Shown: positions 3,006 through 57,644 of the stretch, in pieces
Layout: every line of letters starts with the position of its first letter
How positions within the stretch are numbered: the stretch's first letter is position 1
The notes under the pieces: generated by a model
Databases searched by the model: none
What the model saw: only the letters and a program-made list of their open reading frames with translations
What the model was told of the DNA's origin: nothing
Assembly: GCA_024638655.1 (NCBI GenBank)
Contig: JAHEJW010000001.1
Location: 18,043-82,042 of the forward strand
Reading direction: 5' to 3'
DNA length: 64,000 nucleotides
DNA from: a bacterium
Lineage (GTDB): Bacteria; Actinomycetota; Acidimicrobiia; Spongiisociales; ZC4RG35
Position numbers and translations under genes: made by a program

Positions 3006-3033
3006 ATCTCTCAGCCTCTCCTATTCACTCACT

Positions 3034-5926: not shown

Positions 5927-5930
5927 CTAC

Positions 5931-7429: not shown

Positions 7430-7601
7430 TGGAGTTCCTTCTCTTTCATGATGGCGGCCGACTTCGCCCGAGTGGCTCCGTTCAACACAGGCGATGGCGT
7501 TGCCGGGGACGCAACATCGTCTGACTCCTCGCGCGGTGCGGCTCCGGGCGAACAGACGCCGGTCGTCCGCAACTCGCCGCAAGTGTCAGTTCGGGGACCG
7601 C

Positions 7602-8792: not shown

Positions 8793-8799
8793 GAAAGCC

Positions 8800-34531: not shown

Positions 34532-34535
34532 TCCT

Positions 34536-36014: not shown

Positions 36015-36016
36015 AA

Positions 36017-37093: not shown

Positions 37094-39528
37094 GCGTCCG
37101 CCACCTCCGCCTCAACCGCAGAATCGATTCCGAGTGCTGTCGCCCCTGGCTGGTTGAACGGGACGTAGACCGTGCCTGCCGGCGTGCCCTCGTCCACGAC
37201 CATTTCGAATCGGCCCTCACCGGAGACCGTGACGAGTCGGAGTGAGTCGCCCGGGACCGCGTCAAGGGCAGTGGCATCCAGGGGGTTCACGAGCACTACC
37301 GGGCCCAACGCCAGCCTGCTCAGGGAAGGTGAGTGACGCAGGCGGACCCCGTCGTCGTACATGGTGCGAGCCACGTGAAGTGAGAGACCGTTCTCTCTCT
37401 TCCCATCGGTGGCAACCGCCACCGGGATATGGGCAAGCTGGCTCTCGCCCTCGAGAGGGACGACAACACCGTCCCGGGCCTCCCATTCGAGTAGGTCCCA
37501 GGAAACCCCGACGTAGGCCGGGGCGACCGTGCTGATCTCCTTTGAGATCGCCTCGGCTGAGCTCAACCCGAGTGGCGCCCCGATCCGATGGGCCAGGTCG
37601 TCGAGCATCGCCCAGTCGGGGCGTGTCTGTCCCGGGCCGGGCCGTATGTTGTTCAACTTCTGGACCCGCCCCTCGACGTTGGTGACAGTGCCTTCTTTCT
37701 CCGTGAAGGTCTCCGCGGGCAGGATCACCTCGGCATGCCGAGTCGAATCCGTGATGAATAGGTCGATCGCGACCACCCACTCTGCGGCCTCCAGTGCCTC
37801 CTCCGCCAAGGCGGGAATCGGGAAGTCCCGCACCGGGTCTGCACCAACCAGCAGCAGACCACGGATCTCCCCGGAGATCAGGCCCTCGAGAATCCCGGCG
37901 GTGTCCCGACCGGGAACGGAGGGGACTTCCCCCCAATGATCGCGCAGACGACCGACCCCCTCCTGGCTCACTCCAACTCGACCGGGAAGGAGATCGGGAG
38001 CCAAGCCCATGTCGAGGGCGCCGTAGGTGTTTGCCCTGGAGTTGAGCGGCAGCAGGTCGGAGCGACCGCGACGGGCCCGGACCAAAGCCGCCACCGCTTC
38101 GGCCACGTGTGGCCCGTCAGCATGGCTGGCGATTCCGATCAGAGCCACGACGTTGTCGGCATCGAGCGCCTCGATCACGTCGGGATAGCGACCGTCATCC
38201 AAGGCCTGAACAAGGTCGAAACCCTCACCGGGGCGATAGGTGAGCTTGCGGAAGGCCACATCGTCGAGCCCTGTCGCCCGGGGATGGACGACAACCAGCT
38301 CGGCGCCAAGCTCCTGTGCCGCTCGTCGCACCCTCAAGTACAGGGTGGGATGCTCTTCCTTCAGGTCAGGGCCCCAAACCAGAATCGTGTCGGCGTCGTC
38401 GAGCTGTCCGATGGTTGCGCGATCGACTGTGCCGGCCAGGAAATGCGATGAGAGGGAGTCGCCGAGACGACAGTCGACGTTGTTGGTTCCGAGAGCCACC
38501 CTGGCGAATTTGGACAACGCATACGCATCCTCGTTGGTGCCGTGAGCGCCTCCGATCACCGCTAGCGCGTCTCCCCCGCTCTCGTCCCTGATCAATCCGA
38601 GACGATCGGCTGCCACGTCGATGGCCTCCGCCCAATCGGTTGCTTCGTACACGCCTTTGCGTCTGACCAGGGGAGCGCCGAGACGATCTTCCGAGTGGAT
38701 GTACTCGAAGCCGAACCTCGCCTTGTCCGAGAGCCAGCCATGGTTGGTGGCGTCGTTGTCAACACCGGTGTATCGAACGATCTCGTTCTGACTGGCATGC
38801 ACCTCGATCCTCGGATGGGCAGTGTCGAACAGAGAGGAACTCACCACCTTTAGGAGATCCCAGGGGCGCGCCCTGAAGCGATACGGGCCGGCGGTCAGAG
38901 CACCGACCGGGCACAGCTGCACCGTGTTTCCAGAGAAGTAGGAAGCGAATGGATGATCGGGAAAGGTGTTCACCTGAGTCTTGTTTCCCCGGTCGAAGAA
39001 CTCGATCAGGGGATCACCGGAGATCTCCCTCGAGAACCTGGTGCACCGGTCGCACAGAATGCAACGCTCCCGGTCGAGGAGAACGAGGTCGGATATCGGG
39101 ATGGGCTTCTCGTAGTTCCGCTTTATCTCCACGAACCGGCTCTCACCGGGGCCGTGCGACAAGGCCTGGTCCTGCAACGGGCACTCACCGCCCTTGTCAC
39201 AGACCGGGCAATCGAGTGGGTGATTTGCCAGGAGAAACTCGAGGACCGCCTCCTGAGCCTTCTTGGTGACGTCGCTCTGAGTGGCGACGACCATCCCGTC
39301 GGAGACTGGGTTCATGCAAGCCGGGATCAGAGCCGGCCCGCGCCCGGTGTCGACTTCGACGATGCAGACACGACACATGCCTACCGGCGTCATCCTGGGG
39401 TGCCAGCAAAAACGAGGGATGTAGGTCCCGCTGTCCTCGGCGGCGGTGATGAGCATCTCGCCACTGAGCACCTGGTGTTCCCGACCGTCGATGGTGATCG
39501 TGACGAACTCGGGTTGCCCGGAGGTCAT
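37090..39528 (-). CDS. nuoG: NADH-quinone oxidoreductase subunit G (75-kDa Fe-S subunit)
   Basis: N-terminal 2Fe-2S and 4Fe-4S cysteine motifs (CWHPRMTPVGMCRVC, HPLDCPVCDKGGECPLQD, CILCDRC), followed by a molybdopterin-oxidoreductase-like domain. 812 aa. Confidence 0.9.
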   Translation of the reverse strand: MTSGQPEFVTITIDGREHQVLSGEMLITAAEDSGTYIPRFCWHPRMTPVGMCRVCIVEVDTGRGPALIPACMNPVSDGMVVATQSDVTKKAQEAVLEFLLANHPLDCPVCDKGGECPLQDQALSHGPGESRFVEIKRNYEKPIPISDLVLLDRERCILCDRCTRFSREISGDPLIEFFDRGNKTQVNTFPDHPFASYFSGNTVQLCPVGALTAGPYRFRARPWDLLKVVSSSLFDTAHPRIEVHASQNEIVRYTGVDNDATNHGWLSDKARFGFEYIHSEDRLGAPLVRRKGVYEATDWAEAIDVAADRLGLIRDESGGDALAVIGGAHGTNEDAYALSKFARVALGTNNVDCRLGDSLSSHFLAGTVDRATIGQLDDADTILVWGPDLKEEHPTLYLRVRRAAQELGAELVVVHPRATGLDDVAFRKLTYRPGEGFDLVQALDDGRYPDVIEALDADNVVALIGIASHADGPHVAEAVAALVRARRGRSDLLPLNSRANTYGALDMGLAPDLLPGRVGVSQEGVGRLRDHWGEVPSVPGRDTAGILEGLISGEIRGLLLVGADPVRDFPIPALAEEALEAAEWVVAIDLFITDSTRHAEVILPAETFTEKEGTVTNVEGRVQKLNNIRPGPGQTRPDWAMLDDLAHRIGAPLGLSSAEAISKEISTVAPAYVGVSWDLLEWEARDGVVVPLEGESQLAHIPVAVATDGKRENGLSLHVARTMYDDGVRLRHSPSLSRLALGPVVLVNPLDATALDAVPGDSLRLVTVSGEGRFEMVVDEGTPAGTVYVPFNQPGATALGIDSAVEAEVADA

Positions 39529-40943
39529 GACGACCCTTCTCCAGCGGACTCCCTATCGCTGGGAATGCTCCCTGTCGATCCTCCTCGGACTTCTGGACCC
39601 GCTCCAGCGAGCGAGCTGGGTGCCCGGGCCCTCGTCTCCCCGGACTTCAGTTCGAATGGACACCCACCCAGGTCGACGTGCCTCTGCACCTCGTCCCGGA
39701 AGTAGTCACGAAGCGCGATGATCGGCGACACTGCCGAAGGGCCCAATGGGCAGATGGTGGTCATCTTCGGAGGCCACTGGAGACCGACGCTGATCCCGTC
39801 GGACACATCGATGAGCAGATCGAGGTCAACGGGCCGGCCCGCGCCCTCATCGATGCGTCGGAGGATCATCTCCATCCAGGTGGTCCCCTCACGACAGGGG
39901 GTGCATTGACCACAAGACTCGTGCGAGAAGAACCTGACGATGCGCTCCGCCGCGCGCACCATGCAAGTGTCTTCGTCCATCACCACGACGGCCCCGGATC
40001 CGAGCATCGATCCCGCCAAAGCGCACGCCTCCTTGGCGACGATCAGATCCAGATGCTCATCGGGCACGAACCAAGGTGCCGAGGCCCCCCCGGGAATCCA
40101 CGCCTTGAGTTCCTTGTCATCGCGGATTCCGCCTCCGATGTCGTAGATGAGCTCCCGCCAGCTGAGAGTGTGTGGCAGCTCGTAGTTGCCCGGGCGCTTG
40201 ACATGACCCGAAAGCGAGATCATGTAGGTGCCGGTGTCCAGGGCGATCACCAGATCGCGGTAGGCCTCACCGCCCATCTCCAGGATGTGAGGGATATTCG
40301 ACATCGTCTCGACGTTGTTGACGATGGTGGGCTTCATATAGAGGCCTTTGGCGGCCGGGAAGTAGGGCGGCTTCAGCCTCGGCTCGCCACGCTCACCCTC
40401 GAGGGAATTGATCAGGGCTGTCTCCTCACCGCAGATGTAGGCGCCTGCGCCGAGATGCACCACGATGTCGAGGTCGTAGTCCGAGCCGAAGATCCCCCTG
40501 CCGAGATAGCCGTTTTGGTACGCCTCTTCGATCGCCCTCTGGGTCCTCCGCGCCGGCTTGGGGTATTCCCCGCGGATGTAGATGAAAGCGAGATGAGCCT
40601 CGTTGGCGATGGCCGTGATGATCATCCCCTCGATCATCTGATGAGGGTCCCGCTCGAGGAGCTGACGGTCCTTGAAGGTCCCGGGCTCCGACTCATCGGC
40701 ATTGACGACCAGGTATGCCGGGCGCTCAGGCGCCAGGAAACCCCACTTGACACCTGCCGGGAAGGCGGCTCCTCCACGGCCGAGGAGCTCGGAGGTCTTC
40801 ACTTCTCCGACCAGCTCGTCCCGGGTCATGCCGAGCGCGCGTTTGGCCTGCTCATACCCGCCGGTCGCCTCGTATCTGGCGATGGTGTGCGAATCGGACG
40901 GATACTCGGTCATTCTCTTGGTGACGACAAGGGGGGTGCTCAT
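39525..40943 (-). CDS. nuoF: NADH-quinone oxidoreductase subunit F (NADH- and FMN-binding)
   Basis: GRGGAAFPAG.KW FMN/NADH-site motif and the C-terminal ESCGQCTPCREG [4Fe-4S] motif. 472 aa. Confidence 0.9.
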   Translation of the reverse strand: MSTPLVVTKRMTEYPSDSHTIARYEATGGYEQAKRALGMTRDELVGEVKTSELLGRGGAAFPAGVKWGFLAPERPAYLVVNADESEPGTFKDRQLLERDPHQMIEGMIITAIANEAHLAFIYIRGEYPKPARRTQRAIEEAYQNGYLGRGIFGSDYDLDIVVHLGAGAYICGEETALINSLEGERGEPRLKPPYFPAAKGLYMKPTIVNNVETMSNIPHILEMGGEAYRDLVIALDTGTYMISLSGHVKRPGNYELPHTLSWRELIYDIGGGIRDDKELKAWIPGGASAPWFVPDEHLDLIVAKEACALAGSMLGSGAVVVMDEDTCMVRAAERIVRFFSHESCGQCTPCREGTTWMEMILRRIDEGAGRPVDLDLLIDVSDGISVGLQWPPKMTTICPLGPSAVSPIIALRDYFRDEVQRHVDLGGCPFELKSGETRARAPSSLAGAGPEVRGGSTGSIPSDRESAGEGSS

Positions 40944-41563
40944 TCGCCCCCCTCGCTCTCGACCGTTCCGAGCGGCTGAAATGCCGGAAACGGTCCGATG
41001 GCGCCGTCGGTCTCGGGGATTGCCCAGTCGAAACTGCGCCGTCCTCCGAAGAGCTCCTGCATCTCATCTGTGTTGACGACGACCGGCCGAGCCTTCTTCA
41101 GCCACGTGACCAGATCGCGCGCTTTGTCCGGTGTCACGCCTTCGATCAGCTCATAGTTGACCTGCACGGCCGGCGCTCCACCGCAAGCGCCGATGCACTC
41201 GGCATGCTCGACCGACAGGAGCCCTTCTTCGTCGGTCTCACCGTGGGGCACGCCCGATTCGTCCTCGACGGCGTGCATCACTTCATCTCCACCAAGCAGC
41301 ATGCAGGAGATGGATGTGCAGCAGGAGATCAGATACTTGCCGGTCCGCTCCCTCTTGTACATCGTGTAGAAGCTCGCCACGGAGAGCACCTGCGCCGGGG
41401 TGATCTCACACCACCGGGCGACCTCCTCCATCCCGGTCTCGGTCAGGTGCCCTTCCTCGGCCATGGCCAGGTAGAGGAGCGGCATGACTGCCGATCGCTT
41501 CTGCGGGTAAAGGTCGATGATTTCGCGGGCACGCTCCTGGGTGCTCTCCGACCAGTGGCTCAT
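40940..41563 (-). CDS. nuoE: NADH-quinone oxidoreductase subunit E (24-kDa, 2Fe-2S)
   Basis: Thioredoxin-like 2Fe-2S subunit with CCTSISC....CIGACGGAP cysteines. 207 aa. Confidence 0.9.
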   Translation of the reverse strand: MSHWSESTQERAREIIDLYPQKRSAVMPLLYLAMAEEGHLTETGMEEVARWCEITPAQVLSVASFYTMYKRERTGKYLISCCTSISCMLLGGDEVMHAVEDESGVPHGETDEEGLLSVEHAECIGACGGAPAVQVNYELIEGVTPDKARDLVTWLKKARPVVVNTDEMQELFGGRRSFDWAIPETDGAIGPFPAFQPLGTVESEGGE

Positions 41564-41642
41564 CGGAGTGGGAGAATAGGGAGCAGGGAATACACGGGCG
41601 AAACCAGCGGAGAGGCTTCATTTCGCTGCAAAAAGCGCCCTC

Positions 41643-43010
41643 TCACCGATCTACGTCGCCCATCACCGGGTCCATGGACGCGATGGTCGCCACCGTGTCC
41701 GCAACAAGGCTATCTGCCATGGCGATTGGCAGACCCTGGAGGTTGTAGAAAGAAGGGGCCCGGGTGTGCATGCGCCACGGCATCGGCCCACCGTCTGCCA
41801 CCAGGTAGCAGCCGAGTTCGCCGCGTGGGGACTCCACCGCCACATAGGTCTCGCCGGCCGGCACCTTGAAACCTTCGGTGAATAGCTTGAAGTGGTGAAT
41901 CAGCGCCTCCATCGATTCGTCGATGCGAGCTCTGGGTGGGGGTGTGATCTTGCGGTCATCGATCCTGTAGTTGCCTTTGGGCATGGAGTCCATCACCTGC
42001 TCGACGATCTTCAGTGACTCTTCGATCTCTTCGACCTTGACCCGATAGCGGTCATACACGTCACCCCGCTCGCCAAGCGGCACGTCGAACTCGTACTGAT
42101 CGATACCCGAGTAGGGAAAAACCTTCCTGATGTCCCAGTCCACGCCGCTAGCCCTTAGTGGGGGGCCGGTGATGCTGTAGGCGATGGCTTCCTCGGCCTG
42201 GATTATGCCTACGTCCCGGGTTCGAGAAAGCCAGACCGGGTTCTCTTTGAGCAGATCGTCGTACTCCTGAAGACGGACTGGCATCTCCTTGAGAATCGCC
42301 GCGACGTCGTCCTTCCATCCGGGAGGAAGATCAGCGGCCACGCCACCCGGGCGGATGTAATTGTGGTTCATTCGGAGCCCGGTGGCCTTCTCGAAGAACG
42401 CGAGGATGGCCTCCCTCTCCCGAAAACCGTAGATCATCATCGAGAGGGCGCCGATGTCCAGACCGTTGGTTGCCAGAGCGACCAGATGGGAGGAGATCCG
42501 GTTGAGCTCGGTCATCAGGATCCTGATCGCGGCGGCGCGCGGTGGGACCTCGACGCCGAGGAGCCGCTCCACGGCAAGTGAATAGGCGAGCTCTTCGTGG
42601 AGTGGAGAGAGGTAGTCCATCCGCGTCACGTTCGTGGGCCCCTGGGCGTAATTGAGCTGCTCGGCGGTCTTCTCCATTCCGGTATGGAGATACCCGATGA
42701 TCGGCCGAGTTCGCCTGATGATCTCCCCCTCGAGCTCGATCTGCAGACGAAGAACCCCGTGGGTGGATGGGTGCTGGGGACCCATGTTCACGATCATGCG
42801 CTCATCGTCGTCAGCGTCCTCGTCGAACACGTAGTCATCTTCGACCACTCGACCGAACTGGGCGGCCAGCCGGTCCTCAGACTCGTGTTCGGAGATCTCC
42901 TGGCGGCCCTCGTCCGTGGGTTGGAACTGAGGCTCCTCGGTGCCTGCCACCCACAAGTCGAAGGTGTCGGTCTCTCCGCCGGCCTGGTCTTGTGTGTTCT
43001 CGTCGCTCAT
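41643..43010 (-). CDS. nuoD: NADH-quinone oxidoreductase subunit D (second operon) with an acidic N-terminal extension
   Basis: NMGPQHPSTHGVLRL ... SMDPVMGDVDR. Start at ATG 43010 (MSDENTQDQ...), 2 nt after the nuoC stop. About 70 acidic residues precede the conserved core. Confidence 0.9.
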   Translation of the reverse strand: MSDENTQDQAGGETDTFDLWVAGTEEPQFQPTDEGRQEISEHESEDRLAAQFGRVVEDDYVFDEDADDDERMIVNMGPQHPSTHGVLRLQIELEGEIIRRTRPIIGYLHTGMEKTAEQLNYAQGPTNVTRMDYLSPLHEELAYSLAVERLLGVEVPPRAAAIRILMTELNRISSHLVALATNGLDIGALSMMIYGFREREAILAFFEKATGLRMNHNYIRPGGVAADLPPGWKDDVAAILKEMPVRLQEYDDLLKENPVWLSRTRDVGIIQAEEAIAYSITGPPLRASGVDWDIRKVFPYSGIDQYEFDVPLGERGDVYDRYRVKVEEIEESLKIVEQVMDSMPKGNYRIDDRKITPPPRARIDESMEALIHHFKLFTEGFKVPAGETYVAVESPRGELGCYLVADGGPMPWRMHTRAPSFYNLQGLPIAMADSLVADTVATIASMDPVMGDVDR

Positions 43011-43012
43011 CG

Positions 43013-43486
43013 TCAGCTCACCTGATGGGCCTGCTTGAACTGGACCGGAACCGACCCCACCCCGAAGTCCTTCCGAAGCGGGTGACCTTCCCAATCGTCG
43101 GGCATCAGGATGCGCGTCAGGTCGGGGTGCCCTTCGAACTCGATGCCAAACATGTCGTACACCTCGCGCTCGGCAAAGTTGGCCCCCGGCCAGAGCGGCG
43201 TGAGCGATGCGATCGTGGGATCCTCTCGCCCCACCGAGGTGATCATGCGTAGCCGGATTCTGTGTTGCATCGACACGAGATTGGCAACGACCTCGAATCG
43301 CTCAGGCCTCAGACGCATCCAGTCGACCGCGGTGACGTCACCACATATCTCGAACCCCGCCTCCTTGGCGGCTCCGGCGAAGGAGAACCAGGCATCGGCG
43401 GGAACCCGCGCCACATCCTGGCCGTGAGAGTCCTCCCAGACAACGGCTTCGAACTGTTCCTTGAGATCCTCGAGCACCGGGCTCAT
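43013..43486 (-). CDS. nuoC: NADH-quinone oxidoreductase subunit C (second operon)
   Basis: [32 protein letters not shown]. Start at ATG 43486, forming an ATGA overlap with the nuoB stop. The track ORF from 43846 runs through nuoB in another frame and is rejected. Confidence 0.85.
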
Positions 43487-47641: not shown

Positions 47642-48283
47642 ATGGATAGGGCGCAGGACGGCGGTAACGTCGCCGGCATGAGCGGGTTATCCCGTGCCAC
47701 CGTCTCCAGGCTCCCTCAATATCTTCGTCTTCTCGAGGACATCGAGACGGGTGACACCATCAGCTCGGATCTGCTCGCCGAGGCTGCAGGTGTAAACGCG
47801 GCCAACGTGAGGCGTGATCTCTCCGATCTCGGCTTTCAGGGAACCAGAGGAGTCGGCTACTCGGTCCCCAACCTGCGTGACCGAATTCGACGGGAGCTCG
47901 GAATCGAAAAGCGCCGAAAGGTGGCGATAGTCGGCGCGGGGAACCTCGGCACTGCGCTCGCTCGCTACGGAGGCTTGGCCAAGCGAGGCTTCGACGTGGT
48001 GGCGATCTACGACATCGACCAGGAGCGAATCGGCTCACTCATCGGCGACGTGAAGGTCCAAGACATATCGGAAATGCCCGGAGACTGTGGGAGCGGGCTT
48101 TACGACATGGCCATCATTGCGGTCCCAGCCAGAGCGGCGCAGACCGTGGCGGAGGGCCTGGTGGACGCCGGAATCAGCTCGCTGCTCAATTTTGCCCCGG
48201 TGCGGGTGTCGGTACCGGATGCCATCCCAGTCCGGCAGGTGGATCTATCAACCGAGCTGCAGATACTCAGCTACTACGGCTGA
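47642..48283 (+). CDS. rex: redox-sensing transcriptional repressor Rex
   Basis: N-terminal winged-helix (RLPQYLRLL) and C-terminal Rossmann NAD(H)-binding motif VAIVGAGNLGTAL. 213 aa. Divergent from menJ with only 27 nt between the start codons. Confidence 0.8.
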   Translation: MDRAQDGGNVAGMSGLSRATVSRLPQYLRLLEDIETGDTISSDLLAEAAGVNAANVRRDLSDLGFQGTRGVGYSVPNLRDRIRRELGIEKRRKVAIVGAGNLGTALARYGGLAKRGFDVVAIYDIDQERIGSLIGDVKVQDISEMPGDCGSGLYDMAIIAVPARAAQTVAEGLVDAGISSLLNFAPVRVSVPDAIPVRQVDLSTELQILSYYG

Positions 48284-48354: not shown

Positions 48355-48723
48355 CTAGCCCGCTACCGCTTCCTCCTGGGCTTCTTCAAATTGATGCAGT
48401 GCGACCAGGAAGACGAGGAAGAGCACCACGGAGACGAGCAGGAACGTGATTGGGATCACCCGGATCTCGAATGCGTTCAGCCCTTCGATGTTGTCTGGCT
48501 TGGGGCCCCGTGGGGCGTAGATGACGAACAGGAGCGACGTGATGCTCATCCACCCGAACGTGGCGGCACCGGTGACCAGGAAACCGAGCCGCTTGCCCAG
48601 ATTGGTGTAGTTGAACAGGTAGATCGACCCGTAGAAGAGGAGAACCGAGGCGATCGTCAGGATGATGCCTGTTACGAAGAGGTTGGCCGACAGAAGTGAC
48701 CTGAATAGCTCACGGAAGAACAT
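48355..48723 (-). CDS. small hypothetical membrane protein, last gene of the Rieske/cytochrome b operon
   Basis: 122 aa, 3-4 TM helices, 14-nt overlap with the diheme cytochrome c gene. Possible small accessory subunit. Confidence 0.4.
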   Translation of the reverse strand: MFFRELFRSLLSANLFVTGIILTIASVLLFYGSIYLFNYTNLGKRLGFLVTGAATFGWMSITSLLFVIYAPRGPKPDNIEGLNAFEIRVIPITFLLVSVVLFLVFLVALHQFEEAQEEAVAG

Positions 48724-50443
48724 TCTCTACCGTCCCTCCTTTCCCATCGAGATTTCCGCTCCGAAGGTAGGCGGCCACCAACTCGATGTCCTCCTGGGCG
48801 AGAATCGCCCCGAAGGCAGGCATGCGACCCGAGCCAAATCCGTTGAGGCCATAAGGCCGATTGGCCACCGAGCCGTTGATCAGGAAGTCCACGAGAAGGT
48901 CTTCGCCCAACTCAGCCGGGTCCTCGCCGAACTGAACCACGGGCCTCCCGTCCCAAAGAGCCGGGCCAAATCCGCCGGATCCCGCCTCCTGAGTGAAGGG
49001 GATGCCCGCCGAGAATCCGGCGGTGTGACACCGGGCGCAGTTCGCCAAGAAGAGCCCAACGGCTCGTTCGGCGTCATCTTCGGACACGTCTCTTCCGAGC
49101 TGGGCCGACATCGCTTCGGCAACTCCTGCGATGTCGATCTCCCAGGCGCGCCGCTCGGCCGCATTGACCAGGAAATCGAGCCCGGCTGATTCGCTTTCGA
49201 GGAGTTTCTCCTGGTTCTCGGCGGCGACCCCTGTGTTGATCGCCACGGTCTCCAGTCCACCCACCATCGCGGTCGCTGCGGCCAGGTCGGCCTGGCCGGC
49301 CGTCGACTCTGGGTTTGCCGGATCGAGCGAAACTGCGGTGAGCCGAGTCGGCACCGTGGCATCGACCGCTGCGGCAAATTGCCCGCTTATCGCGGACTCG
49401 GCCTGATCGGAGATCCCGTCTCCGTCGGTGTCCTCGCCTTCGGGAGGAGCATCCAGCTCCGCCTCGATCGCAGCGATGTTGAGAAGCAGGATCGGATCGG
49501 TCTCCGCGGCCGTCCTGAGCCGGTCGAGACCGGACTGCACCAAATCGGCGTCGGCGACAGCAGGATCCATAACAACCGGCTCGATCACCCGATAGAACTC
49601 GATCGCACTTTCGGAGATCTCCGACAACTCCGCTTCGGCGGCGTCCGACAAGCCGTCGGCGTCGGTATCGATGCCTTCGTCGGCAGAGTCGAGGATTTCG
49701 AGTGCGCGGTCGGCCAGTGGGACGATGAAGGCGGCGTTCCCGGGCGCCTGCTCGATCTCGGCGACGACCTGACGCTGATTGGCGATGGCCGTCTCCATCG
49801 TGGCGTCTGCATTCCCGAACCTCTGGAGTTGGATGTCGATCTCAGCTGCGGTCTTGTCGACCGCCTCCTGCTGGGGGATTTGGATGGTCTCGAGGTAGTT
49901 GACGACGTCTTCGATCTGCTTCTCGTTCATCGGGCCACCGCCATCGAGACCCCAGGCCGGCATCGGCGTGTTCCCTCGGCCATAGGTGAGCCAGTAGTTC
50001 ACTTCGTCTGCGTCATAGCGATAGAAGACGTCGTTGATGGCCGGCGCCGCCCAGGAGACTGTGACACCGGAACGCTTCTCCACGAACCTCGCCGAGCCAC
50101 CTACACCTAACGGCCCGTGGCAGCTGTAGCAGGCGAACTCCTCGACCAGGTGCTCGCCTCGCTCTACCGACGCTTCCTCGAACTCATCGACAAATCCTTC
50201 CTGCCGGTTCTGCTCACCCAAGAAGTAGAGGGGCAGGGAGATGGCGAGGAATGCCGAGGCTGCGATGGCCACCTTTTGGCCTGTCTCGAGCCGTCTGGTC
50301 TCCAATTCCTGGTCGTTGGTCCCGGGCTGGAGGTTCGGGGCCACCTCCTCTGAGCCGCGATTTCGCAAAGCCGACACCACGACGAGACCGAGCCACACGA
50401 TGCCGGCTACGACGGCGAGAACAGTGATGATGTTCGCGGTCAT
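48710..50443 (-). CDS. membrane-anchored diheme cytochrome c with a ~300-aa acidic insert between the heme domains
   Basis: N-terminal TM helix and two CxxCH motifs (CYSCH, CARCH), each followed by class-I-like cytochrome c sequence. The intervening region is Asp/Ala-rich with two DTDxDGxSD motifs. Confidence 0.75.
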   Translation of the reverse strand: MTANIITVLAVVAGIVWLGLVVVSALRNRGSEEVAPNLQPGTNDQELETRRLETGQKVAIAASAFLAISLPLYFLGEQNRQEGFVDEFEEASVERGEHLVEEFACYSCHGPLGVGGSARFVEKRSGVTVSWAAPAINDVFYRYDADEVNYWLTYGRGNTPMPAWGLDGGGPMNEKQIEDVVNYLETIQIPQQEAVDKTAAEIDIQLQRFGNADATMETAIANQRQVVAEIEQAPGNAAFIVPLADRALEILDSADEGIDTDADGLSDAAEAELSEISESAIEFYRVIEPVVMDPAVADADLVQSGLDRLRTAAETDPILLLNIAAIEAELDAPPEGEDTDGDGISDQAESAISGQFAAAVDATVPTRLTAVSLDPANPESTAGQADLAAATAMVGGLETVAINTGVAAENQEKLLESESAGLDFLVNAAERRAWEIDIAGVAEAMSAQLGRDVSEDDAERAVGLFLANCARCHTAGFSAGIPFTQEAGSGGFGPALWDGRPVVQFGEDPAELGEDLLVDFLINGSVANRPYGLNGFGSGRMPAFGAILAQEDIELVAAYLRSGNLDGKGGTVENVLP

Positions 50444-50449: not shown

Positions 50450-51331
50450 TCAGCCACCGATGCAGCTGGGGCCGCGGGGATAGCTGACGCTCAGCAGCTG
50501 GGATCGAGGGGTCTGGATGACCGTCCCCGTCTTGATGATGAAACGATCGCTCTGCACCTCGACCACGAAACGGTCGAGGTTGCGTGGAGCCGGGCCGGCG
50601 AAATACTCGCCGATGGAGCTGTATTTCGATCCGTGGCAGGGGCACTCGAAACCTTGGGACGTCGCACACCAGGGAACCCGGCACCCGAGGTGGACACACC
50701 GCTGAAAGAGAGCCATCAGACCGGCGGCTTCTACCCCGTCGCCTTCCATCGACTCGGGGACAACAGGGGACGGGACCACGTAGGCCCGAGCCTCCGGGAC
50801 GAAGACGGGGACAATCGAGCCATCGGCAGCAACCGTCTGGTTTTGAATGTCGGCGACCGTGCCGGCATCGACGTCGGTTCCGAAGCCTCCGCTCAGCTTG
50901 GGCCACATGAATGCAAGCGAGTTGATGCCCACCAGGCCCAGGAATGCGAAGAACGTCCCGCTCAACGCGCGGTTGAAGAACTGTCGCCGGGTGACACCGG
51001 ACTCCTCGGGTGTCACTTCGATGACCCGTTGCCGCTCTATCACCTGGACGCTTCCTCCAGCCGGGGCGAGCTCCTGGCTTGGCTCCGCTTCGACCTCTAC
51101 TTCGACTTCCGCAGGCTGGGGCTCGGAGACCGGCTCCGGCTCGGGCAAGGGCTCGACGCGCACGCCCTCCATCGACCGATCCGACCGACGAGTCTCCTCT
51201 GATACGCCGGCGGTGGGATCGGGGGCTGGCGCGTCCGCCCTCGAGCGCCGGAAAGCCACGGTGAATGCGCCAATCGCCCCCACGATTGCGAAGAGGGCAA
51301 CACCGATGAGAACCATGTTGGTGAAAGTCAT
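50450..51331 (-). CDS. Rieske [2Fe-2S] iron-sulfur protein
   Basis: Cluster boxes CVHLGCRVPW and CPCHGSKY, twin-arginine motif TRRQFF, N-terminal TM helix and an acidic Pro/Glu-rich linker. Confidence 0.85.
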   Translation of the reverse strand: MTFTNMVLIGVALFAIVGAIGAFTVAFRRSRADAPAPDPTAGVSEETRRSDRSMEGVRVEPLPEPEPVSEPQPAEVEVEVEAEPSQELAPAGGSVQVIERQRVIEVTPEESGVTRRQFFNRALSGTFFAFLGLVGINSLAFMWPKLSGGFGTDVDAGTVADIQNQTVAADGSIVPVFVPEARAYVVPSPVVPESMEGDGVEAAGLMALFQRCVHLGCRVPWCATSQGFECPCHGSKYSSIGEYFAGPAPRNLDRFVVEVQSDRFIIKTGTVIQTPRSQLLSVSYPRGPSCIGG

Positions 51332-52347
51332 TCGAAGTTCACCCAGTCCTTGAGGTCATCGAAGAAGACGCCGTCGCGCCACGGATAGGAGAAGTTGAAC
51401 CCCTGACCTCTGAAGAGCACACCGATGATCGTCAAGGTCGCAGATCCGGCCAGGAAGATCGAATAGAGCATGATGGCGAATTTGCGGTCAGTGGGACGGG
51501 TCGAGGGGTTCTTGTCGACGTAGGGGATCATCATGAACCCGATCAATCCGATGAAGAGTGGAACCATGACCCCTGCGACTTGGGGATCGAAGTAGCTCAG
51601 GAGCTCCTGGAGACCAAGGAAGTACCAGGGTGCCTTGGAGGGATTGGGCGTGGCATTGAAGTTGGCCGGCTCCAGCAGCGGGGAGTGGATCACGACCGAC
51701 ATGATGACGAGCAGCCCCGTGATCGCGAGCAACGCGCCGAACTCCATCAGCATCAGATGCGGCCACGTGTTCACTTTGTCGCTCGGCTCGGCTTTGACGT
51801 TCTGGATTGCCCGCGCCTTGACGACAGTGAGCAACCTCTGAGTCCTCACCCCTTCGGGCAGACCGGCCGGCGGAACGCTGGGTCTTGGGCTCACCAGACC
51901 GGCAACCTTGCCGTTTCCTCCACCACCATTGGAGGGAGCTACCGGGACAGTCTCTTCTTCGCCCATGGTGGCGACGGCCGCAGCAGGCTCCTCCGCCTCG
52001 GCGGCAGCCGCGTCTTCGTCCGGAATGACCGCGGCTGCGGGCGCCTCGAAAGGCTCCTCTTCCTCGGTGACGTCGGGCTCGATCGACTCCGGCTCATCGC
52101 CCGGTTCTGGGGTGGCCGGCTTGGTGATGGTCTCCACGTCGCCGGTCGCGACTGCCTCCGCCGCCTCTACGACCATCTCCTTTGGCTCGGGCTTGTCGCT
52201 CGCCTCTACCGGCGCCTCGATCTTGGGTGGCTCTACAGGCGGGCCTTCACCCTTCATCTCGGCCAGCACCTGCTCGACCGGCACACCCAACGCCTTGGCC
52301 TTGGCTTCTGCCGATCTCCTCAGGAGATCTTCTGGTATCTCAACCAT
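51328..52347 (-). CDS. cytochrome b C-terminal-domain protein (b6f subunit IV-like) with a ~200-aa hydrophilic N-terminal extension
   Basis: C-terminal three-TM domain with a PEWY-box equivalent (KAPWYFLGLQELL). AAGGAG RBS upstream of ATG 52347. The N-terminal extension is Ala/Glu/Pro-rich. Confidence 0.7.
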   Translation of the reverse strand: MVEIPEDLLRRSAEAKAKALGVPVEQVLAEMKGEGPPVEPPKIEAPVEASDKPEPKEMVVEAAEAVATGDVETITKPATPEPGDEPESIEPDVTEEEEPFEAPAAAVIPDEDAAAAEAEEPAAAVATMGEEETVPVAPSNGGGGNGKVAGLVSPRPSVPPAGLPEGVRTQRLLTVVKARAIQNVKAEPSDKVNTWPHLMLMEFGALLAITGLLVIMSVVIHSPLLEPANFNATPNPSKAPWYFLGLQELLSYFDPQVAGVMVPLFIGLIGFMMIPYVDKNPSTRPTDRKFAIMLYSIFLAGSATLTIIGVLFRGQGFNFSYPWRDGVFFDDLKDWVNFE

Positions 52348-52358: not shown

Positions 52359-53135
52359 TTACAGAGGCCCCGAGATGCCGCCGTCCTTGCGAACCCGCCA
52401 GAAGTGAACGGCGAGAAACACGACCAGGACGAATGGGAAGAAGAGGACATGCAGAACGTAGAAGCGGAGCAAGGTCGAACCGCTCACTTCAACTCCTGCG
52501 AGAAGTGCGAACTTGACCTGGTCACCGATCACGGGGGAAAACCCAGCCATGTTGGAACCTACCGTGACAGCCCAAAGCGCCAGCTGATCCCAGGGCAACA
52601 GATAGCCGGAGAAGGAGAGGAACAAAGTGAGGAAGAGGAGGATCACGCCGACGACCCAGTTGAACTCGCGTGGCGGCTTGTATGCACCGTGGTAGAAGAC
52701 GCGACTCATGTGGAGGAAGACTGACAGGACCATGAGGTGGGCGCCCCAACGATGCATGTTTCTCACCAGAGAGCCGAAGGCGACGTTGGTGGACAACGCC
52801 TCCATGTCCGCATAGGCGATTTCGGCAGTGGGCGTGTAATAGAACATCAGGAAGATGCCGGTGATCGTGAGCAGGATGAACAGGAAGAAACTCAGGCCGC
52901 CCAGACACAAGGTGTACGACAGGCGGACTCCGTGCCGCTTCACCTTCACCGGGTGGAGGTGGTACAGCACGTTGTTCATCACCACGTAGGAGCGGTTCCT
53001 CGGGCTGTCCGAGTAGCCCTGTTTGAACGGGGAGCCCGGTCGGAGTATCGATTCGACAACCTGTGAGCTCCAGAGCTTCTCGTTCGTTTCCTTGATTCGC
53101 TCCTTGAGGCTGGTTCTTCCGTTTCCGTTGGCCAT
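52359..53135 (-). CDS. cytochrome b6-like protein (N-terminal four-helix cytochrome b domain with heme ligands)
   Basis: [50 protein letters not shown] and paired His ligands (LH...13 residues...H) in helices B and D. 258 aa. Confidence 0.85.
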
Positions 53136-53152: not shown

Positions 53153-53602
53153 CTACCAGCGCATACCGTAGGAGTAGCCGTTTTTGAAGTCACGTTGACC
53201 GGTGTCGAAATCCCATGGGCGAAGATCGAGGCCGAGCTCGGCAGCCTGCTCGGCCAACGAGCCCTCGAACTTGCCGAGGGTGATCACGTTCGTAGGGCAC
53301 CTGTCGATGCACAGCTGGCATCTGGTGCACTCGTCCTCATCGACGATGAAGAAGCCATAGTTCTGGGGGTCCTCGCCAGGATGGTCGACATTGACACCTT
53401 CTGAAATCGCGTCCAGCGAGAGGTAATGGATGCACTTCCACGGACAGATATCGACACAGCCCTCACAGAGAATGCACTCGGCCTGGTCGATGTGGAGGAA
53501 CTGCTTGGGGCGAAGCTTGTCCTTGAAGTAGTCGCCCTCGACAACGGCGAGCTGATAGTCGTCTCTGATCGGCGGGATCTCATCGATGACACCTTTGGGC
53601 AT
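53153..53602 (-). CDS. 2x[4Fe-4S] dicluster ferredoxin
   Basis: [12 protein letters not shown] and [12 protein letters not shown]. 149 aa. TGATG overlap with the upstream membrane-protein gene, and immediately precedes cytochrome b6. Confidence 0.8.
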
Positions 53603-54234
53603 CAGCGATCACCCCTCACCAGTGGCCTGCCGTATGGCGAGGTCTTCTCGACAGGCTGGGCGCCTGCCGGCCGACCTTCCTTCATTCTCTGGATCTGGAT
53701 GGCGAGCACCGCTGCAAACCCGAGTAGACCCAGGCTGTAACCCATCTGGATCGAATCTCTGATCACCGCGTAGCTGATCTCGACGGTGTTGCCCAAGACG
53801 AGGAAAGGAGGGATCGCAAGGGCGACGCGCTGGCTCGACCATTCGAGATCGGTTTGGGCGAAGTTGAGCCACTCGCTCGGGACCATGCCGAAATAGAACA
53901 CCAGAGCCGACCAGGCGATGACCGCGGCCGTCGTGGCCCGGGCCCAGGTCATCTTCTGGTTGAGCACCCAGAGAAATGTCGCGCCCACAATGGCGAAGGT
54001 GCTGGCCCCCAGGACGATCACGTAGCCAACCGCCTTCCACCACATTCCCCTGGGGAACCAGTTCAGCTGATCCACCACGACCGGTACCTCGACACCGTTC
54101 ACCAGCTCGGTCTCCGGCAAGCTGGACCAATGGATCCAGATGACTCCGATGATGAGGCCGATCAAGCCGAACAGGATCAGCAACGACCCGATGGCCTTGC
54201 GGCGGCTATCACTCAGTTCTGCGAGGCGATACAT
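53602..54234 (-). CDS. hypothetical 4-TM membrane protein, first gene of the Rieske/cytochrome b operon
   Basis: 210 aa, four predicted TM helices, no recognisable cofactor motif. Translationally coupled to the ferredoxin gene. Confidence 0.4.
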   Translation of the reverse strand: MYRLAELSDSRRKAIGSLLILFGLIGLIIGVIWIHWSSLPETELVNGVEVPVVVDQLNWFPRGMWWKAVGYVIVLGASTFAIVGATFLWVLNQKMTWARATTAAVIAWSALVFYFGMVPSEWLNFAQTDLEWSSQRVALAIPPFLVLGNTVEISYAVIRDSIQMGYSLGLLGFAAVLAIQIQRMKEGRPAGAQPVEKTSPYGRPLVRGDR

Positions 54235-54395: not shown

Positions 54396-55835
54396 TTGGC
54401 TCAGACGCAAAGCTCGAACATCAGAACCCTCCTCGGGGGCGGCGCAGGCGGAGACCGCCTGGCCGCAACGCATTTTCTGGTAGGTGCCGCGTTTCTCGTC
54501 CTCGGTGGGGCTTTCTCTCTGCTGTCGCTTCTATCGCTCAGATTCGCCGGGCTCTTCCCACTCACTTATGGCCGTTTCGAGCCAATGGCGAATCTCAGCC
54601 TGATCATCGGATTCGCAGTCATCTCCCTCGTAGGCGGTGTCTACTACGTGCTCCCAAGACTCACCGGGACCGTCCTGTGGCGAGATGAGATCGCCGGCCT
54701 GGGACTCCTGGGGACGGCGGGCATCGTCGTTCTCGGTCTGGCCGCCACCGCCCTGGGCTTGGGCAGTGGCCGCGGCCCATTCGACCTCCCCTGGTGGCTG
54801 AGTGTTCCGTTGGCGCTCGTGCTCGCCATCCCGGCGGTCGTCACCCTCGGAACGGTTGCCAACCGTGAGGAGCAGCGGAGTTACGTGTCGATCTGGTTCG
54901 TTCTCGGCGGAACTGCGTGGCTTTTCCTGCTGACGCTGGCGTATCTGGTGGGGGATCTGCCTTTTGTCGGGTCACTCGCTGTTGCCTATGCCGACGTCTT
55001 CTACTCGGCGGGATTGGTCACGCTCGTCGTGTTCACCTTGGGCACGGGCCTCTTCTACTACACGGTGGTGAAGGAGCTCGACGTAGCCCTGGCCAGTCGT
55101 CAACTGGCGATGTTGGGGTTTTGGTCTCTCGGCTTCGCCGCCGTGTGGTGGGGGGTCGCCCAGGTCATGTTCGGGCCCGGCCCGACCTGGGTCTCCGGTG
55201 TCGTGGCGGCCCTCGGTCTTGCCTTCCCGATAGGGGCGCTGGCGAACGCAGCCAACGTGGCGCTCACCCTCGAGGGCTCCTGGGGACGGCTCGAGGCCAA
55301 ACCCGGAGTCACCGCAGGTGTGTACGGACTGTTTCTCGGCGTCGGGGTTGCTTTCCTCGCCGCCATGGGCGGGTTCCGCTCCATCGCCGCAGTGACATCG
55401 TTGACCGCGTTCTGGGAAGCCATCGAATACGCCGCAGTTCTGGGTGCCGGCGCCTTACTCGTGGCAGGCATCAGCTTCCAGGCGCTGCCCCGGTTGCTGG
55501 GCCGCGAGATCCATTCCCTGGATCGGGCCAGGTCCTTTGCCAGGCTCACCGTGATCGGCGCCGTTGGGGTACTGGTCTTCATGGCTGCCTCGGGCGTGGT
55601 CTCCGGCTATTCGTGGATCGCCGGATCGAACTCGGCCGCCTACATCGACGCCGGTGAGGGCTGGCAGGCCGGGGCCGGCGAGGTCCCCGACGCACTCCTC
55701 CTGATAGCGATCCTGTTCGCCTTCGTCACCTTCGCAGGACAACTTGCATACGCCTCCACGGTCTTCGGGACGGTCACCAGGGGCAAGGCCACCACCCAGG
55801 AGTTACTGGTGACGGGGATGACCGACGATGAGTGA
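54396..55835 (+). CDS. heme-copper oxidase subunit I (CcoN)-like 12-TM protein lacking the canonical histidine metal ligands
   Basis: 12 predicted TM helices. FEPMANLSLIIGFAVISLVGGVYYVLPRLTG parallels the CcoN MHG...GGFGNYLVP block, and AVWWGVAQVM parallels WWYGHNAV, with His replaced in both; only 2 His occur in 479 aa. TTG start with AGAGG upstream. Confidence 0.55.
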   Translation: MAQTQSSNIRTLLGGGAGGDRLAATHFLVGAAFLVLGGAFSLLSLLSLRFAGLFPLTYGRFEPMANLSLIIGFAVISLVGGVYYVLPRLTGTVLWRDEIAGLGLLGTAGIVVLGLAATALGLGSGRGPFDLPWWLSVPLALVLAIPAVVTLGTVANREEQRSYVSIWFVLGGTAWLFLLTLAYLVGDLPFVGSLAVAYADVFYSAGLVTLVVFTLGTGLFYYTVVKELDVALASRQLAMLGFWSLGFAAVWWGVAQVMFGPGPTWVSGVVAALGLAFPIGALANAANVALTLEGSWGRLEAKPGVTAGVYGLFLGVGVAFLAAMGGFRSIAAVTSLTAFWEAIEYAAVLGAGALLVAGISFQALPRLLGREIHSLDRARSFARLTVIGAVGVLVFMAASGVVSGYSWIAGSNSAAYIDAGEGWQAGAGEVPDALLLIAILFAFVTFAGQLAYASTVFGTVTRGKATTQELLVTGMTDDE

Positions 55836-56589
55836 TCAGCTGAGCGCAGCGGCCGCAGCCCTGGGCATACCCGAGTCGCTGGTCGAAAGGTCCGCGGCGG
55901 CGCGCGCCGCCGAGACCGGATCCAGCGCCGATGAGATCCTGACGGCATGGGCCGGAGGCGAAGCGGCCCCGACGCCGACCCGGCTGGCCGATGAGGCACC
56001 TGAGCCAGAAACCGCACCCGTCCCCGAGGCGCCCACAGAGGAGCCTGCGACCCCCGAGGTCGTGATCGAGACTCCCCCGCCCCCGGCAGCCAAACCTGCG
56101 GCGCCGGTACCCGCCGGGCCCTATAAGCCGCCGGTGCTGGTTGGAGCCAGAGACAACCCGATGATCGTCCTGGCTGCCGCGGTCGGCCTGTTCGCGGTCA
56201 TCTTCCTGGTCGGGTTCGTGGGGCCCTCGTTCCAGGGAGAGGCCCCTGGAACACGCACCTCGGAGATTCAGTACTCGGCACGGGCACTCGACGGCAGGGG
56301 CGTGTATGCCTCGCTGAATTGCGGCTCATGCCACACCCAGTTGGTGCGGCCGGTCATCGCCGATGTGGGCCTGGGGGCCGTCACGGTTCACGACACCAAT
56401 CAAGTGATCGGGACGCGCCGGTTCGGGCCAGACCTTTCCAATGTCGGGGCGCGACTCAGCGAATCCCAGCTCGAGGCCGTCGTCATTGGGCTCGGCGAAC
56501 ACCCCGCCTACGTTCTCTCGTCGGAGAACGTGAGTGCGCTAGTGGCCTATCTGGCGGAGTCGCAGACCGCGGAAGCAACGGGGGGCTGA
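55828..56589 (+). CDS. CcoO-like membrane-anchored monoheme cytochrome c
   Basis: TM anchor then GRGVYASLNCGSCHTQLVRP...RRFGPDLSNVGAR, matching the CcoO/FixO heme region including the GPDL..VG.R motif. Its start overlaps the upstream stop (ATGAGTGA). Confidence 0.6.
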   Translation: MSDQLSAAAAALGIPESLVERSAAARAAETGSSADEILTAWAGGEAAPTPTRLADEAPEPETAPVPEAPTEEPATPEVVIETPPPPAAKPAAPVPAGPYKPPVLVGARDNPMIVLAAAVGLFAVIFLVGFVGPSFQGEAPGTRTSEIQYSARALDGRGVYASLNCGSCHTQLVRPVIADVGLGAVTVHDTNQVIGTRRFGPDLSNVGARLSESQLEAVVIGLGEHPAYVLSSENVSALVAYLAESQTAEATGG

Positions 56590-57644
56590 TGAGTGAGTAT
56601 CTGAGCGCAGCGGCCGCAGCCATGGGTCTCCCCGAGGTTCTCGTCGAGCGCTCCGCCGAGGCGAGAGCCACCGAGACCGGAGCCACCGTCGACGAAGTCC
56701 TCCAGGCGTGGGCCGGTGGCGGTGAGATCAGCGCACCTCCCCCGAAACCGGCTGAAGAACCTGCTGGTGAGGCGGCCGCCGAAGAGACGGCGGCTCCCGA
56801 AGAGACCCCGGAACCACAGGCAGCAGCAGCTCCAGTCGCCGCAACGGTGGAAGTCGCAGAGCCGTCGGCCACTGCCCGGGTTCCAACACGCGCTCCGGTC
56901 CCAGAAACGGTCAACTCTGCAGCAGCGGCGCGTCTTCCTGAGGTCGTGACCGTTCCGACTGCCGGGATCAGGGAAAAGACCAGCTTCGCCATCCCCAAGT
57001 GGCTGACCGCCGTTCTTCTGGTTGCCCCGCTCTTCGCATTGTTTGCACTGGGCGGATCGGCGACAGGTGAATGTGGTGCGGCAACTGAGTTGAGGGCGGA
57101 CGTCGTCACCGGCGAAATCGTCAACTGCGATGGCACCGAGTTCACCGGTCAGGCAGTCGGCGGAGGGGGGACCAACTTCATCGCACTCGGCGAAAGCATC
57201 TACCTGGGCGGCGAGGTCACCGGCGTCAACTGTGCCGGTTGCCATGGTCCGGCTGGACAGGGAGCGGGAGCATTCCCTTCGATGACCGGGGTCAACAACA
57301 CGTTTGGTGCATGCACGGACCACATCGAATGGGTGGTCTTGGGTACGGGTGGCTTCCAGGCGGCTGGCAGGAGTACCTACGGCGACACCGGGAAACAGGT
57401 TGGTGCCGCCGGCAACATGCCCGGGTTCTCGAGCAATCTCAGTGCGGAGCAGATTGCTGCCGTCGTCGCCTTCGAGCGCGCCAGGTTCGGTGGAGGCGAC
57501 GCCGATGCAGTGCTCACCGATTGTGGCCTCGTCGAAGAGGCGGGCACCGAGGGAGAGCCCGGAGAAGAGGGTGGTGAAGGCACCGGTGGTGAGGGCACCG
57601 GTGGTGAGGGCGGCACCGAGGCCTCAGCCGGCTCTTCCGGCTGA
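56589..57644 (+). CDS. membrane-anchored class I cytochrome c (CcoP-like partner) with a Gly/Glu-rich C-terminal tail
   Basis: ATGA overlap with the upstream gene. One CxxCH (CAGCHGP) in a class-I cytochrome c context (GNMPGF, LSAEQIAAVVAF). The C-terminal GEGTGGEGTGG tail is encoded by a 15-nt tandem repeat. The 441-aa track ORF from 56319 is an upstream over-extension. Confidence 0.6.
   Translation: MSEYLSAAAAAMGLPEVLVERSAEARATETGATVDEVLQAWAGGGEISAPPPKPAEEPAGEAAAEETAAPEETPEPQAAAAPVAATVEVAEPSATARVPTRAPVPETVNSAAAARLPEVVTVPTAGIREKTSFAIPKWLTAVLLVAPLFALFALGGSATGECGAATELRADVVTGEIVNCDGTEFTGQAVGGGGTNFIALGESIYLGGEVTGVNCAGCHGPAGQGAGAFPSMTGVNNTFGACTDHIEWVVLGTGGFQAAGRSTYGDTGKQVGAAGNMPGFSSNLSAEQIAAVVAFERARFGGGDADAVLTDCGLVEEAGTEGEPGEEGGEGTGGEGTGGEGGTEASAGSSG

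Follow-up and report, generated by a model that had tools for sequence, protein, structure and literature searches.

Few respiratory enzymes have been studied as closely as Rieske/cytochrome b complexes, whose c-type subunits are as a rule compact. Why, then, should one such subunit carry a long acidic segment with Asp-rich loops between its two haem domains? The question is raised by a dihaem cytochrome c gene of a bacterium from the class Acidimicrobiia (phylum Actinomycetota), which lies on a 64,000-nucleotide stretch of contig JAHEJW010000001.1 (GenBank assembly GCA_024638655.1, positions 18,043 to 82,042 of the forward strand; hereafter the window, to which all coordinates refer). On balance, we lean towards reading the protein as the c subunit of a Rieske/b6 complex that bears a Ca2+-stabilised, rigid helical scaffold or stalk at a permissive linker, with the haem domains still adjacent. 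The gene and its parts are as follows.

48710-50443, minus strand: gene for a membrane-anchored dihaem cytochrome c of 577 residues (open reading frame list, Pfam cytochrome c matches)
50366-50434, minus strand: predicted transmembrane helix 1, residues 4-26, NIITVLAVVAGIVWLGLVVVSAL (translation; AlphaFold2 helix 2-27)
50216-50275, minus strand: predicted transmembrane helix 2, residues 57-76, continuing helical into haem domain 1 (translation; AlphaFold2 helix 44-102)
49880-50188, minus strand: haem domain 1, residues 86-188 (Pfam PF13442 and PF00034 over residues 92-187)
49070-49879, minus strand: inserted all-alpha domain, residues 189-458 (alignment to insert-less relatives; AlphaFold2)
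49553-49693, minus strand: repeat unit 1, residues 251-297, a putative Ca-loop, an exiting helix, then MDPAVA (hhalign)
49310-49456, minus strand: repeat unit 2, residues 330-378, a putative Ca-loop, a helix, then LDPANP (hhalign; best TSP3_bac stretch)
48749-49069, minus strand: haem domain 2, residues 459-565 (PF13442 33.0 bits and PF00034 23.7 bits on the C-terminal piece alone)

The coordinates and both DxDxDG motifs were confirmed by translation, and the start codon is correct because Met1 and Thr2 are invariant in a 24-sequence alignment of the cytochrome (alignment A1). The two transmembrane helices would form an N-out/C-out hairpin, its intervening loop (residues 27-56) being read as cytoplasmic because it is rich in Arg and Lys (positive-inside rule); no C-terminal membrane anchor follows haem domain 2. 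Each haem domain has the CxxCH motif and distal Met of a class I c-type cytochrome, and haem attachment is predicted at both. The haem 1 site comprises C105-Y-S-C-H109 (nucleotides 50117-50131) with Met161 (NTPM161P, nucleotides 49961-49963) as the distal residue, and the haem 2 site C469-A-R-C-H473 (nucleotides 49025-49039) with Met541 (GRM541P, nucleotides 48821-48823). Residues C105, C108, H109, M161, C469, C472, H473 and M541 are all invariant in alignment A1, in alignment A2 (34 sequences, down to 39% identity) and in alignment A4. Scored over its full length, the cytochrome matches PF13442 (Cytochrome_CBB3) at 54.4 bits and PF00034 (Cytochrom_C) at 46.3 bits, both above the Pfam gathering cutoffs of 27 and 21.3 bits. 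An assembly or fusion artefact was rejected, as the same open reading frame occurs on hundreds of independent contigs.

The segment between the haem domains spans about 270 residues (approximately 189-458), of which some 240 lie beyond a basal linker of about 25-35 residues. The first-pass annotation of this DNA, made from the sequence alone, had described two haem domains (CYSCH and CARCH) with a long acidic segment between them; the open reading frame, the Pfam matches and the translation bear this out, and the large acidic insert is real, its proposed size of 300 residues being a slight overestimate when measured against insert-less relatives. The insert has an isoelectric point (pI) of 4.05 and consists of 20% Ala and 21% Asp plus Glu; its acidity is partly background, the median pI of the window proteins being 5.2. 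Cys and His are absent from it, so it can bind no redox cofactor, and a redox-active insert was rejected on this ground. Within it lie two copies of the pattern DxDxDGxxDxxE, against 1.3e-4 expected from the composition of the protein: loop 1, DTDADGLSDAAE, is formed by residues D259-T-D-A-D-G-L-S-D-A-A-E270 (nucleotides 49634-49669), and loop 2, DTDGDGISDQAE, by residues D338-T-D-G-D-G-I-S-D-Q-A-E349 (nucleotides 49397-49432). The same annotation had likened these loops to thrombospondin type 3 (TSP3) or DxDxDG calcium-binding motifs, a likeness that profile searches uphold: the bacterial TSP3 profile TSP3_bac (PF18884) matches the insert alone in two stretches at 27.7 bits, above its gathering cutoff of 25 bits, and matches 19 of 27 family inserts at E<=0.01. 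Besides TSP3_bac, no Pfam family matched the family inserts consistently, one member having a stray HTH_6 match (0.0027), and EF-hand families were absent from the Pfam scan of the insert even at E<=10.

The kinship of the loops with known calcium-binding elements is partial. Like bacterial TSP3, they combine a DTDGDG(L/I)SDxxE loop with a subsequent "(T/L)DPxNP" element in what would be an extracytoplasmic location. Canonical TSP3_bac repeats, in contrast, are tight tandem repeats of about 22 residues with little regular secondary structure, found in OmpA-like and other cell-surface proteins, whereas the window insert has two isolated, non-tandem loops 79 residues apart, embedded in a helix-loop-helix arrangement, and a helix of 17-18 residues separates each loop from its DP element. 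Only positions 1-15 of the 22 in the TSP3_bac profile are matched by the insert. The loops also resemble EF-hands in having 12 residues, acidic side chains at positions 1, 3, 5, 9 and 12, Gly at position 6 and helices on both sides; they differ in having Ser instead of Ile, Leu or Val at position 8 and a small residue at position 13. The EF-hand pattern (PROSITE PS00018) requires a hydrophobic residue at loop position 8. Ser occupies that position in 173 of 191 loop 1 copies and 132 of 166 loop 2 copies. Ca2+ binding by both loops is a prediction from sequence.

AlphaFold2 modelling of the full-length protein from the 34-sequence alignment gave a mean predicted local distance difference test score (pLDDT) of 87.5 and a predicted template modelling score (pTM) of 0.75, with residues 190-450 at a pLDDT of 92-97 and all helical. 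Modelled alone, the insert reached a pLDDT of 94.5 and a pTM of 0.82, with nine helices, and each Asp-rich loop (residues 253-266 and 332-345) was placed between an entering and an exiting helix. Given the high pLDDT and the helices, the insert is predicted to be an autonomous folded domain and not a disordered tether. A Foldseek comparison of the insert with the PDB returned no match at E<=1e-3 (template modelling scores <=0.28), and no solved structure covers the whole domain. Searched by sequence with the profile of the family, the PDB yielded only cytochrome c6 (E ~0.004) and left the insert unmatched, and a search with the insert profile returned matches only within this dihaem cytochrome family.

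How widely this domain is kept was examined in a species scan with one genome per GTDB species, in which at least 565 genomes held a relative of the cytochrome; locus and synteny counts refer to the 80 best-matching genomes. These are uncultured metagenome-assembled genomes (MAGs), nearly all labelled Acidimicrobiia or Actinomycetota, with five other bin labels (four Acidobacteriota, one Gammaproteobacteria), and genes are missing from the counts where a contig ends. Nearly all of the 80 align over essentially the full length of the cytochrome at 45-67% identity, and the haem-to-haem spacing is 348-431 residues where the contig holds both motifs. A word-indexed protein search with the cytochrome gave 1492 homologues at E<=1e-5, the top 120 of which are 561-634 residues long and 59-99% identical, those with names coming from Acidimicrobiia MAGs; an exhaustive representative search gave 983 matches, 171 of them with E<1e-30. 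Database names for homologues are limited to "c-type cytochrome" or "mono/diheme cytochrome c family protein". No paper on this dihaem cytochrome or its insert was found in the literature on Acidimicrobiia, QcrC, TSP3 and DxDxDG cytochromes.

The loops recur across a survey of 197 unique relatives, being present in 191 (loop 1) and 166 (loop 2). Every copy of both loops has D1, D3, D5 and E12; Asp is found at position 9 everywhere except in one loop 2 copy, and Gly at position 6 in 92% of loop 1 and 97% of loop 2 copies. Both Asp/Glu ladders are invariant in alignment A1, and in the 34-sequence alignment D259, D261, D263, D267 and E270 of loop 1 are invariant, as are P375 and D386 of the "LDPxNPE" element, while G421, L422, L425 and W434 of the insert core are at least 90% conserved. 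Loop 2 is not present in a clade at 39-46% identity (P0126-P0139). Mean identity to the window protein is 57% for the insert versus 77-80% for the haem domains. The ratio of nonsynonymous to synonymous substitution rates (dN/dS) is 0.125-0.19 for the insert and 0.03-0.10 for the haem domains, values that are rough because synonymous divergence (dS) is 0.7-1.6 and near saturation. The insert is under clear purifying selection. Low-complexity disorder of the insert was rejected on these ratios and the AlphaFold2 confidence.

Comparison of the two repeat units points to how the domain grew. A duplicated unit of about 48 residues can be recognised, consisting of DTDxDGxSDxAE, a helix and then LDPxxP; hhalign aligns unit 1 with unit 2 at a probability of 97.2% (E 3.3e-11, 40% identity), which indicates an internal duplication, and on sequence grounds unit 2 is a clade-specific duplicate. 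Across 90 two-haem representatives, 26 have a haem spacing of 112-140 residues and no motif, and 47 have a spacing of 146-270 and no motif (29 at 146-200, 18 at 201-270). At a spacing of 279-333, one motif is present in 8 of 13 representatives, and at 364-432 two motifs are present in the closest representatives (the 341-440 bin holds 4 of the 90). Some intermediate forms have a simple Ala/Gln/Lys-rich helical stretch with a Trp equivalent to W434. The shortest forms include P0162, an insert-less protein of 355 residues with a haem spacing of 128 in the same operon type, and P0165, an insert-less protein of 359 residues from Acidimicrobiales MAGs. Since P0162 belongs to the same operon type and the basal linker is only about 25-35 residues long, the haem domains were probably adjacent in the ancestor.

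Other lineages have unrelated inserts of 100-270 residues at the same linker: Lys/Glu-rich and coiled-coil-like in P0183, P0245 and P0217, a low-complexity Ser/Gly/Asp/Glu sequence in P0184, and Cys-containing sequences in P0190 and P0197. This variety marks the inter-haem linker as an insertion hot spot, and, by the sequence comparisons, one clade has elaborated that linker into the TSP3-bearing domain. Further variants were seen among its relatives. In a clade of about 20 species, units 1 and 2 stand about 70 residues further apart and the haem spacing is about 420-431 (members with the expanded insert are P0121 and, among the loci, L021, L024, L025, L029-L031, L033-L036, L038-L041, L043-L045, L061 and L068). 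A third unit, DSDGDGISDAAE, stands just before haem domain 2 in P0079, a single partial contig of 2.1 kb in which an assembly artefact is possible. The one-motif clade P0133, P0135 and P0139 has an extra loop of about 15 residues bracketed by two Cys directly before DTDxDG, for example GTCTSASAALVDASC; these paired Cys possibly form a disulfide, reminiscent of the disulfide-dependent Ca sites of TSP3.

The role of the cytochrome was approached through its genomic context. The neighbouring genes, with the number of the 80 loci in which each is syntenic where this was counted, are as follows.

53602-54234, minus strand: 210-residue multi-pass membrane protein without a Pfam or NCBIfam family (51/80)
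53153-53602, minus strand: 2x[4Fe-4S] ferredoxin-like protein, 149 residues (55/80)
52359-53135, minus strand: cytochrome b6-like subunit, 258 residues, split cytochrome b (Pfam Cytochrome_B 157 bits; 60/80)
51328-52347, minus strand: subunit IV-like protein, 339 residues (Pfam Cytochrom_B_C over residues 227-311; 72/80)
50450-51331, minus strand: Rieske [2Fe-2S] subunit, 293 residues, immediately upstream of the cytochrome (Pfam Rieske; 78/80)
48355-48723, minus strand: 122-residue membrane protein, its start overlapping the end of the cytochrome gene by 14 nucleotides (76/80)
47642-48283, plus strand: Rex-type redox-sensing repressor (Put_DNA-bind_N and CoA_binding), just downstream of the operon (59/80)
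54396-55835, plus strand: CcoN/COX1-like 12-helix protein, 479 residues, divergent from the operon (49/80)
56319-57644, plus strand: 441-residue protein with one C-terminal cytochrome c domain, after the CcoN-like gene

The operon genes are tightly packed or partly overlapping on one strand in the order membrane protein, ferredoxin, b6, subunit IV, Rieske, dihaem c and small membrane protein, the dihaem cytochrome being the last redox subunit, and those of the 80 loci with a sufficiently long contig all preserve this order of seven genes. The b6-like subunit scores 296.8 bits against NCBIfam cytb_ExtP (cutoff 290), and the best NCBIfam match of the Rieske subunit is the b6f-type PetC. Because its gene sits in a Rieske/b6/subunit IV operon, the cytochrome is assigned as the c-type subunit of a split-cytochrome-b Rieske complex, and from the operon structure it would associate with the Rieske protein and receive electrons from its cluster. 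A published Rieske/cytochrome b phylogeny (PMC3509893) covers split cytochrome b and is cited for general context only. The 122-residue membrane protein, which has no match in Pfam or NCBIfam and is 62-89% identical among syntenic copies, is a probable extra subunit. In the b6-like subunit, the Cys of "TLCLGG" presumably aligns with that of the haem ci-binding "FYCLGG" of b6f. The ferredoxin-like protein is presumably cytoplasmic, since neither a signal peptide nor a membrane helix is evident, and the presence of such an n-side Fe-S subunit in a b6-type complex suggests that electrons enter or leave on the cytoplasmic side. The Rex-type gene, by its retained position, is a candidate regulator of the operon.

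Other subunits of the operon have additions of their own. The subunit IV-like protein has an Ala/Glu/Pro-rich acidic N-terminal extension of about 190 residues, presumably cytoplasmic; as subunit IV of the insert-less operon L081 is only 220 residues long, this extension may have been gained with the cytochrome insert. Genes for the ferredoxin and the 210-residue protein are also found in L081. Ahead of its "TRRQFF" twin-arginine motif and the usual anchor, the Rieske protein carries a further N-terminal hydrophobic helix and Glu/Pro-rich repeats (a weak Trypan_PARP match). Elsewhere in the window, two separate NADH dehydrogenase (complex I-like) gene sets lie at 1383-8867 and 29655-43094, both on the minus strand, with one Complex1_49kDa gene each (7602-8867 and 41643-43094).

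By analogy, the window cytochrome may work like actinobacterial QcrC, the dihaem cytochrome cc of the bcc complex (Mycobacterium smegmatis and Corynebacterium glutamicum III2IV2 supercomplexes; PDB 7rh5 chain O, 7q21 chain C), yet it lies outside the QcrC family. Membership was rejected because the bc1_QcrC_actin profile (NF050122) gave 21 bits, against a cutoff of 200, over residues 445-484 only. The haem domains of QcrC are adjacent, whereas about 270 residues separate those of the window protein. QcrC has a C-terminal anchor, while the window cytochrome has an N-terminal hairpin and no C-terminal helix. Its partner cytochrome b is of the split b6/subunit IV type, in contrast to the long actinobacterial QcrB that partners QcrC. 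Membership of the CcoP family was likewise rejected (TIGR00782, 32 bits against a cutoff of 179.95), the context being a Rieske/cytochrome b operon and not ccoNOQP. Membrane-tethered cytochrome cy and CcoP-type dihaem subunits are represented by the Rhodobacter CIII2CIV supercomplex (PDB 6xkw/6xkz). In cytochrome cy, a flexible, unstructured linker joins the anchor to the haem domain, whereas the window cytochrome has a confidently predicted folded domain placed between two haem domains; the insert is modelled as helical (pLDDT 92-97), unlike a cy-type linker.

The closest guides are the insert-less homologues. P0162 and P0165 share the N-terminal hairpin and both haem domains with the window protein at 35-41% identity, and the operon of P0162 is of the same type (unknown protein, ferredoxin, b6, subunit IV, Rieske, dihaem c). 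They differ in that the insert-less homologues have a spacing of 112-140, a linker of about 25-35 residues and no DxDxDG motif, and in that the P0162 operon encodes a 220-residue subunit IV without the acidic extension and a 365-residue downstream product instead of the 122-residue one. That dihaem c domains normally lie side by side, as the first-pass annotation supposed, agrees with these homologues, whose haem domains we infer to be in contact.

From this material, a stalk-like arrangement can be proposed. The N-terminal hairpin would anchor the cytochrome with both haem domains and the insert outside the cell membrane, and the Rieske cluster would reduce haem 1, directly on the anchor, with electrons then moving to haem 2 and on to a further acceptor. 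Each loop most likely binds one Ca2+, which would rigidify the insert in the extracytoplasmic space. A helical bundle core would be common to every insert-bearing clade, with the Ca unit of about 48 residues duplicated in the window clade, and the insert as a whole would form an excursion that leaves and returns at the same end, projecting as a stalk or platform with a possible role as a structural scaffold or docking surface. Since the insert is free of cofactors and apparently rigid, and given the contact proposed for insert-less relatives, the haem domains are most probably in contact at its base. Several observations weigh against this proposal. The insert evolves two to four times faster than the haem domains, and unrelated inserts at the same linker fit a permissive site with little specific function. 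The case for Ca2+ is drawn from sequence, where TSP3_bac reaches only 20.8 bits on the full-length protein, below its cutoff of 25, and the loops depart from the canonical EF-hand in having Ser and not a hydrophobic residue at position 8. AlphaFold2 confidence is possibly overoptimistic for helical sequence on a shallow alignment (27-34 sequences).

Much of this would also be expected if the insert were a near-neutral, lineage-specific expansion at a permissive linker, its Asp-rich loops merely stabilising their own fold. The haem spacing in the family is continuous, from 112 to 432 residues in the 90 two-haem representatives, other lineages have unrelated inserts at this site, further duplication or expansion is seen in P0079 and the clade with a spacing of about 420-431, and no part of the protein evolves faster than the insert. 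However, the 80 best-matching genomes, in which identity falls as low as 45%, retain the insert with its length conserved, its loop ligand positions are constant in 191 and 166 of the 197 proteins, purifying selection is clear, and no loss of the insert was seen inside the clade among the examined loci, so that we consider near-neutral expansion unlikely. This same retention bears on the first-pass annotation, which had named loss of the insert or its motifs in orthologues as evidence against its proposal: as the insert is kept and the loop ligands are conserved in orthologues, such loss is not found within the clade. That annotation had proposed a flexible tether letting haem domain 2 reach a distant partner; such a linker would resemble that of membrane-anchored cytochrome cy. 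Haem domain 2 does lack its own membrane anchor, Ala, Asp and Glu abound in the segment (pI 4.05), and the distant relative P0184 has a low-complexity Ser/Gly/Asp/Glu linker at the same site. Against such a tether stand the long regular helices at a pLDDT of 92-97 (94.5 for the insert alone) with no low-confidence stretch, the conserved hydrophobic, Gly and Trp positions (G421, L422, L425 and W434), a length tightly conserved within the clade (spacing 348-431) and a dN/dS of 0.13-0.19, and we regard it as very improbable.

The other proposal made at first pass, a metal-binding spacer, is plausible only if the spacer is rigid. A further possibility is a Ca2+-dependent docking or reach arm that holds haem 2 away from haem 1, towards the other monomer, an oxidase or an envelope partner, or a device for Ca2+-gated transfer between the haems. 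Several lineages appear to have independently lengthened the linker with helical, coiled-coil-like sequence, which would suit an arm. Bacterial TSP3 repeats (PF18884) are typical of cell-surface and envelope proteins, and monoderm Actinomycetota usually lack a soluble cytochrome c and wire complex III directly to the oxidase (the QcrCAB-aa3 supercomplex); both would also be in keeping with an arm. No partner was identified, however. The adjoining CcoN-like protein scores 69 bits against Pfam COX1 and 99.9 bits against TIGR00780 (cutoff 583). It has just two His, at positions 26 and 373, and hence no means of binding the haems or CuB as a haem-copper oxidase does; the suggestion that it is the direct electron acceptor is accordingly doubtful. 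Since the insert is cofactor-free and looks rigid, separated haems would break the electron chain unless a domain moves, and insert-less homologues work in the same operon type. We therefore judge an arm or gate to be less likely still than near-neutral expansion. A bolder version, in which a rigid Ca2+-dependent arm sets the distance of haem domain 2 from haem 1 and thereby lets it engage a second complex (a terminal oxidase, the CcoN-like/cytochrome c module or the other monomer), or in which extracellular Ca2+ gates transfer between the haems, seems to us slightly more remote again, though not as improbable as the tether. The Ca2+-stabilised scaffold with adjacent haem domains remains the reading that we prefer.

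The insert is a new structural variation on a known dihaem c subunit, with no Pfam family beyond the short TSP3 loop. In a class of soil and marine Actinomycetota that is both abundant and uncultured, a predicted Ca2+-binding domain of about 270 residues stands between the two haems of a respiratory cytochrome, in an operon whose further products include a presumably cytoplasmic 2x[4Fe-4S] protein and two membrane proteins without a known family. Residues 189-458 are a defined construct for assays of Ca2+ binding. Even if the domain is mere stabilised decoration, it would neatly illustrate how a domain grows in situ at an insertion hot spot, from a short linker through a helical hairpin and a bundle with one Ca unit to a duplicated unit. 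Should the rigid-arm or Ca2+-gate explanation be true, it would represent a previously undescribed wiring or gating of a bc-type complex in monoderm bacteria. As a docking or spacing device, the domain would reveal how these monoderm bacteria join complex III to its acceptor.

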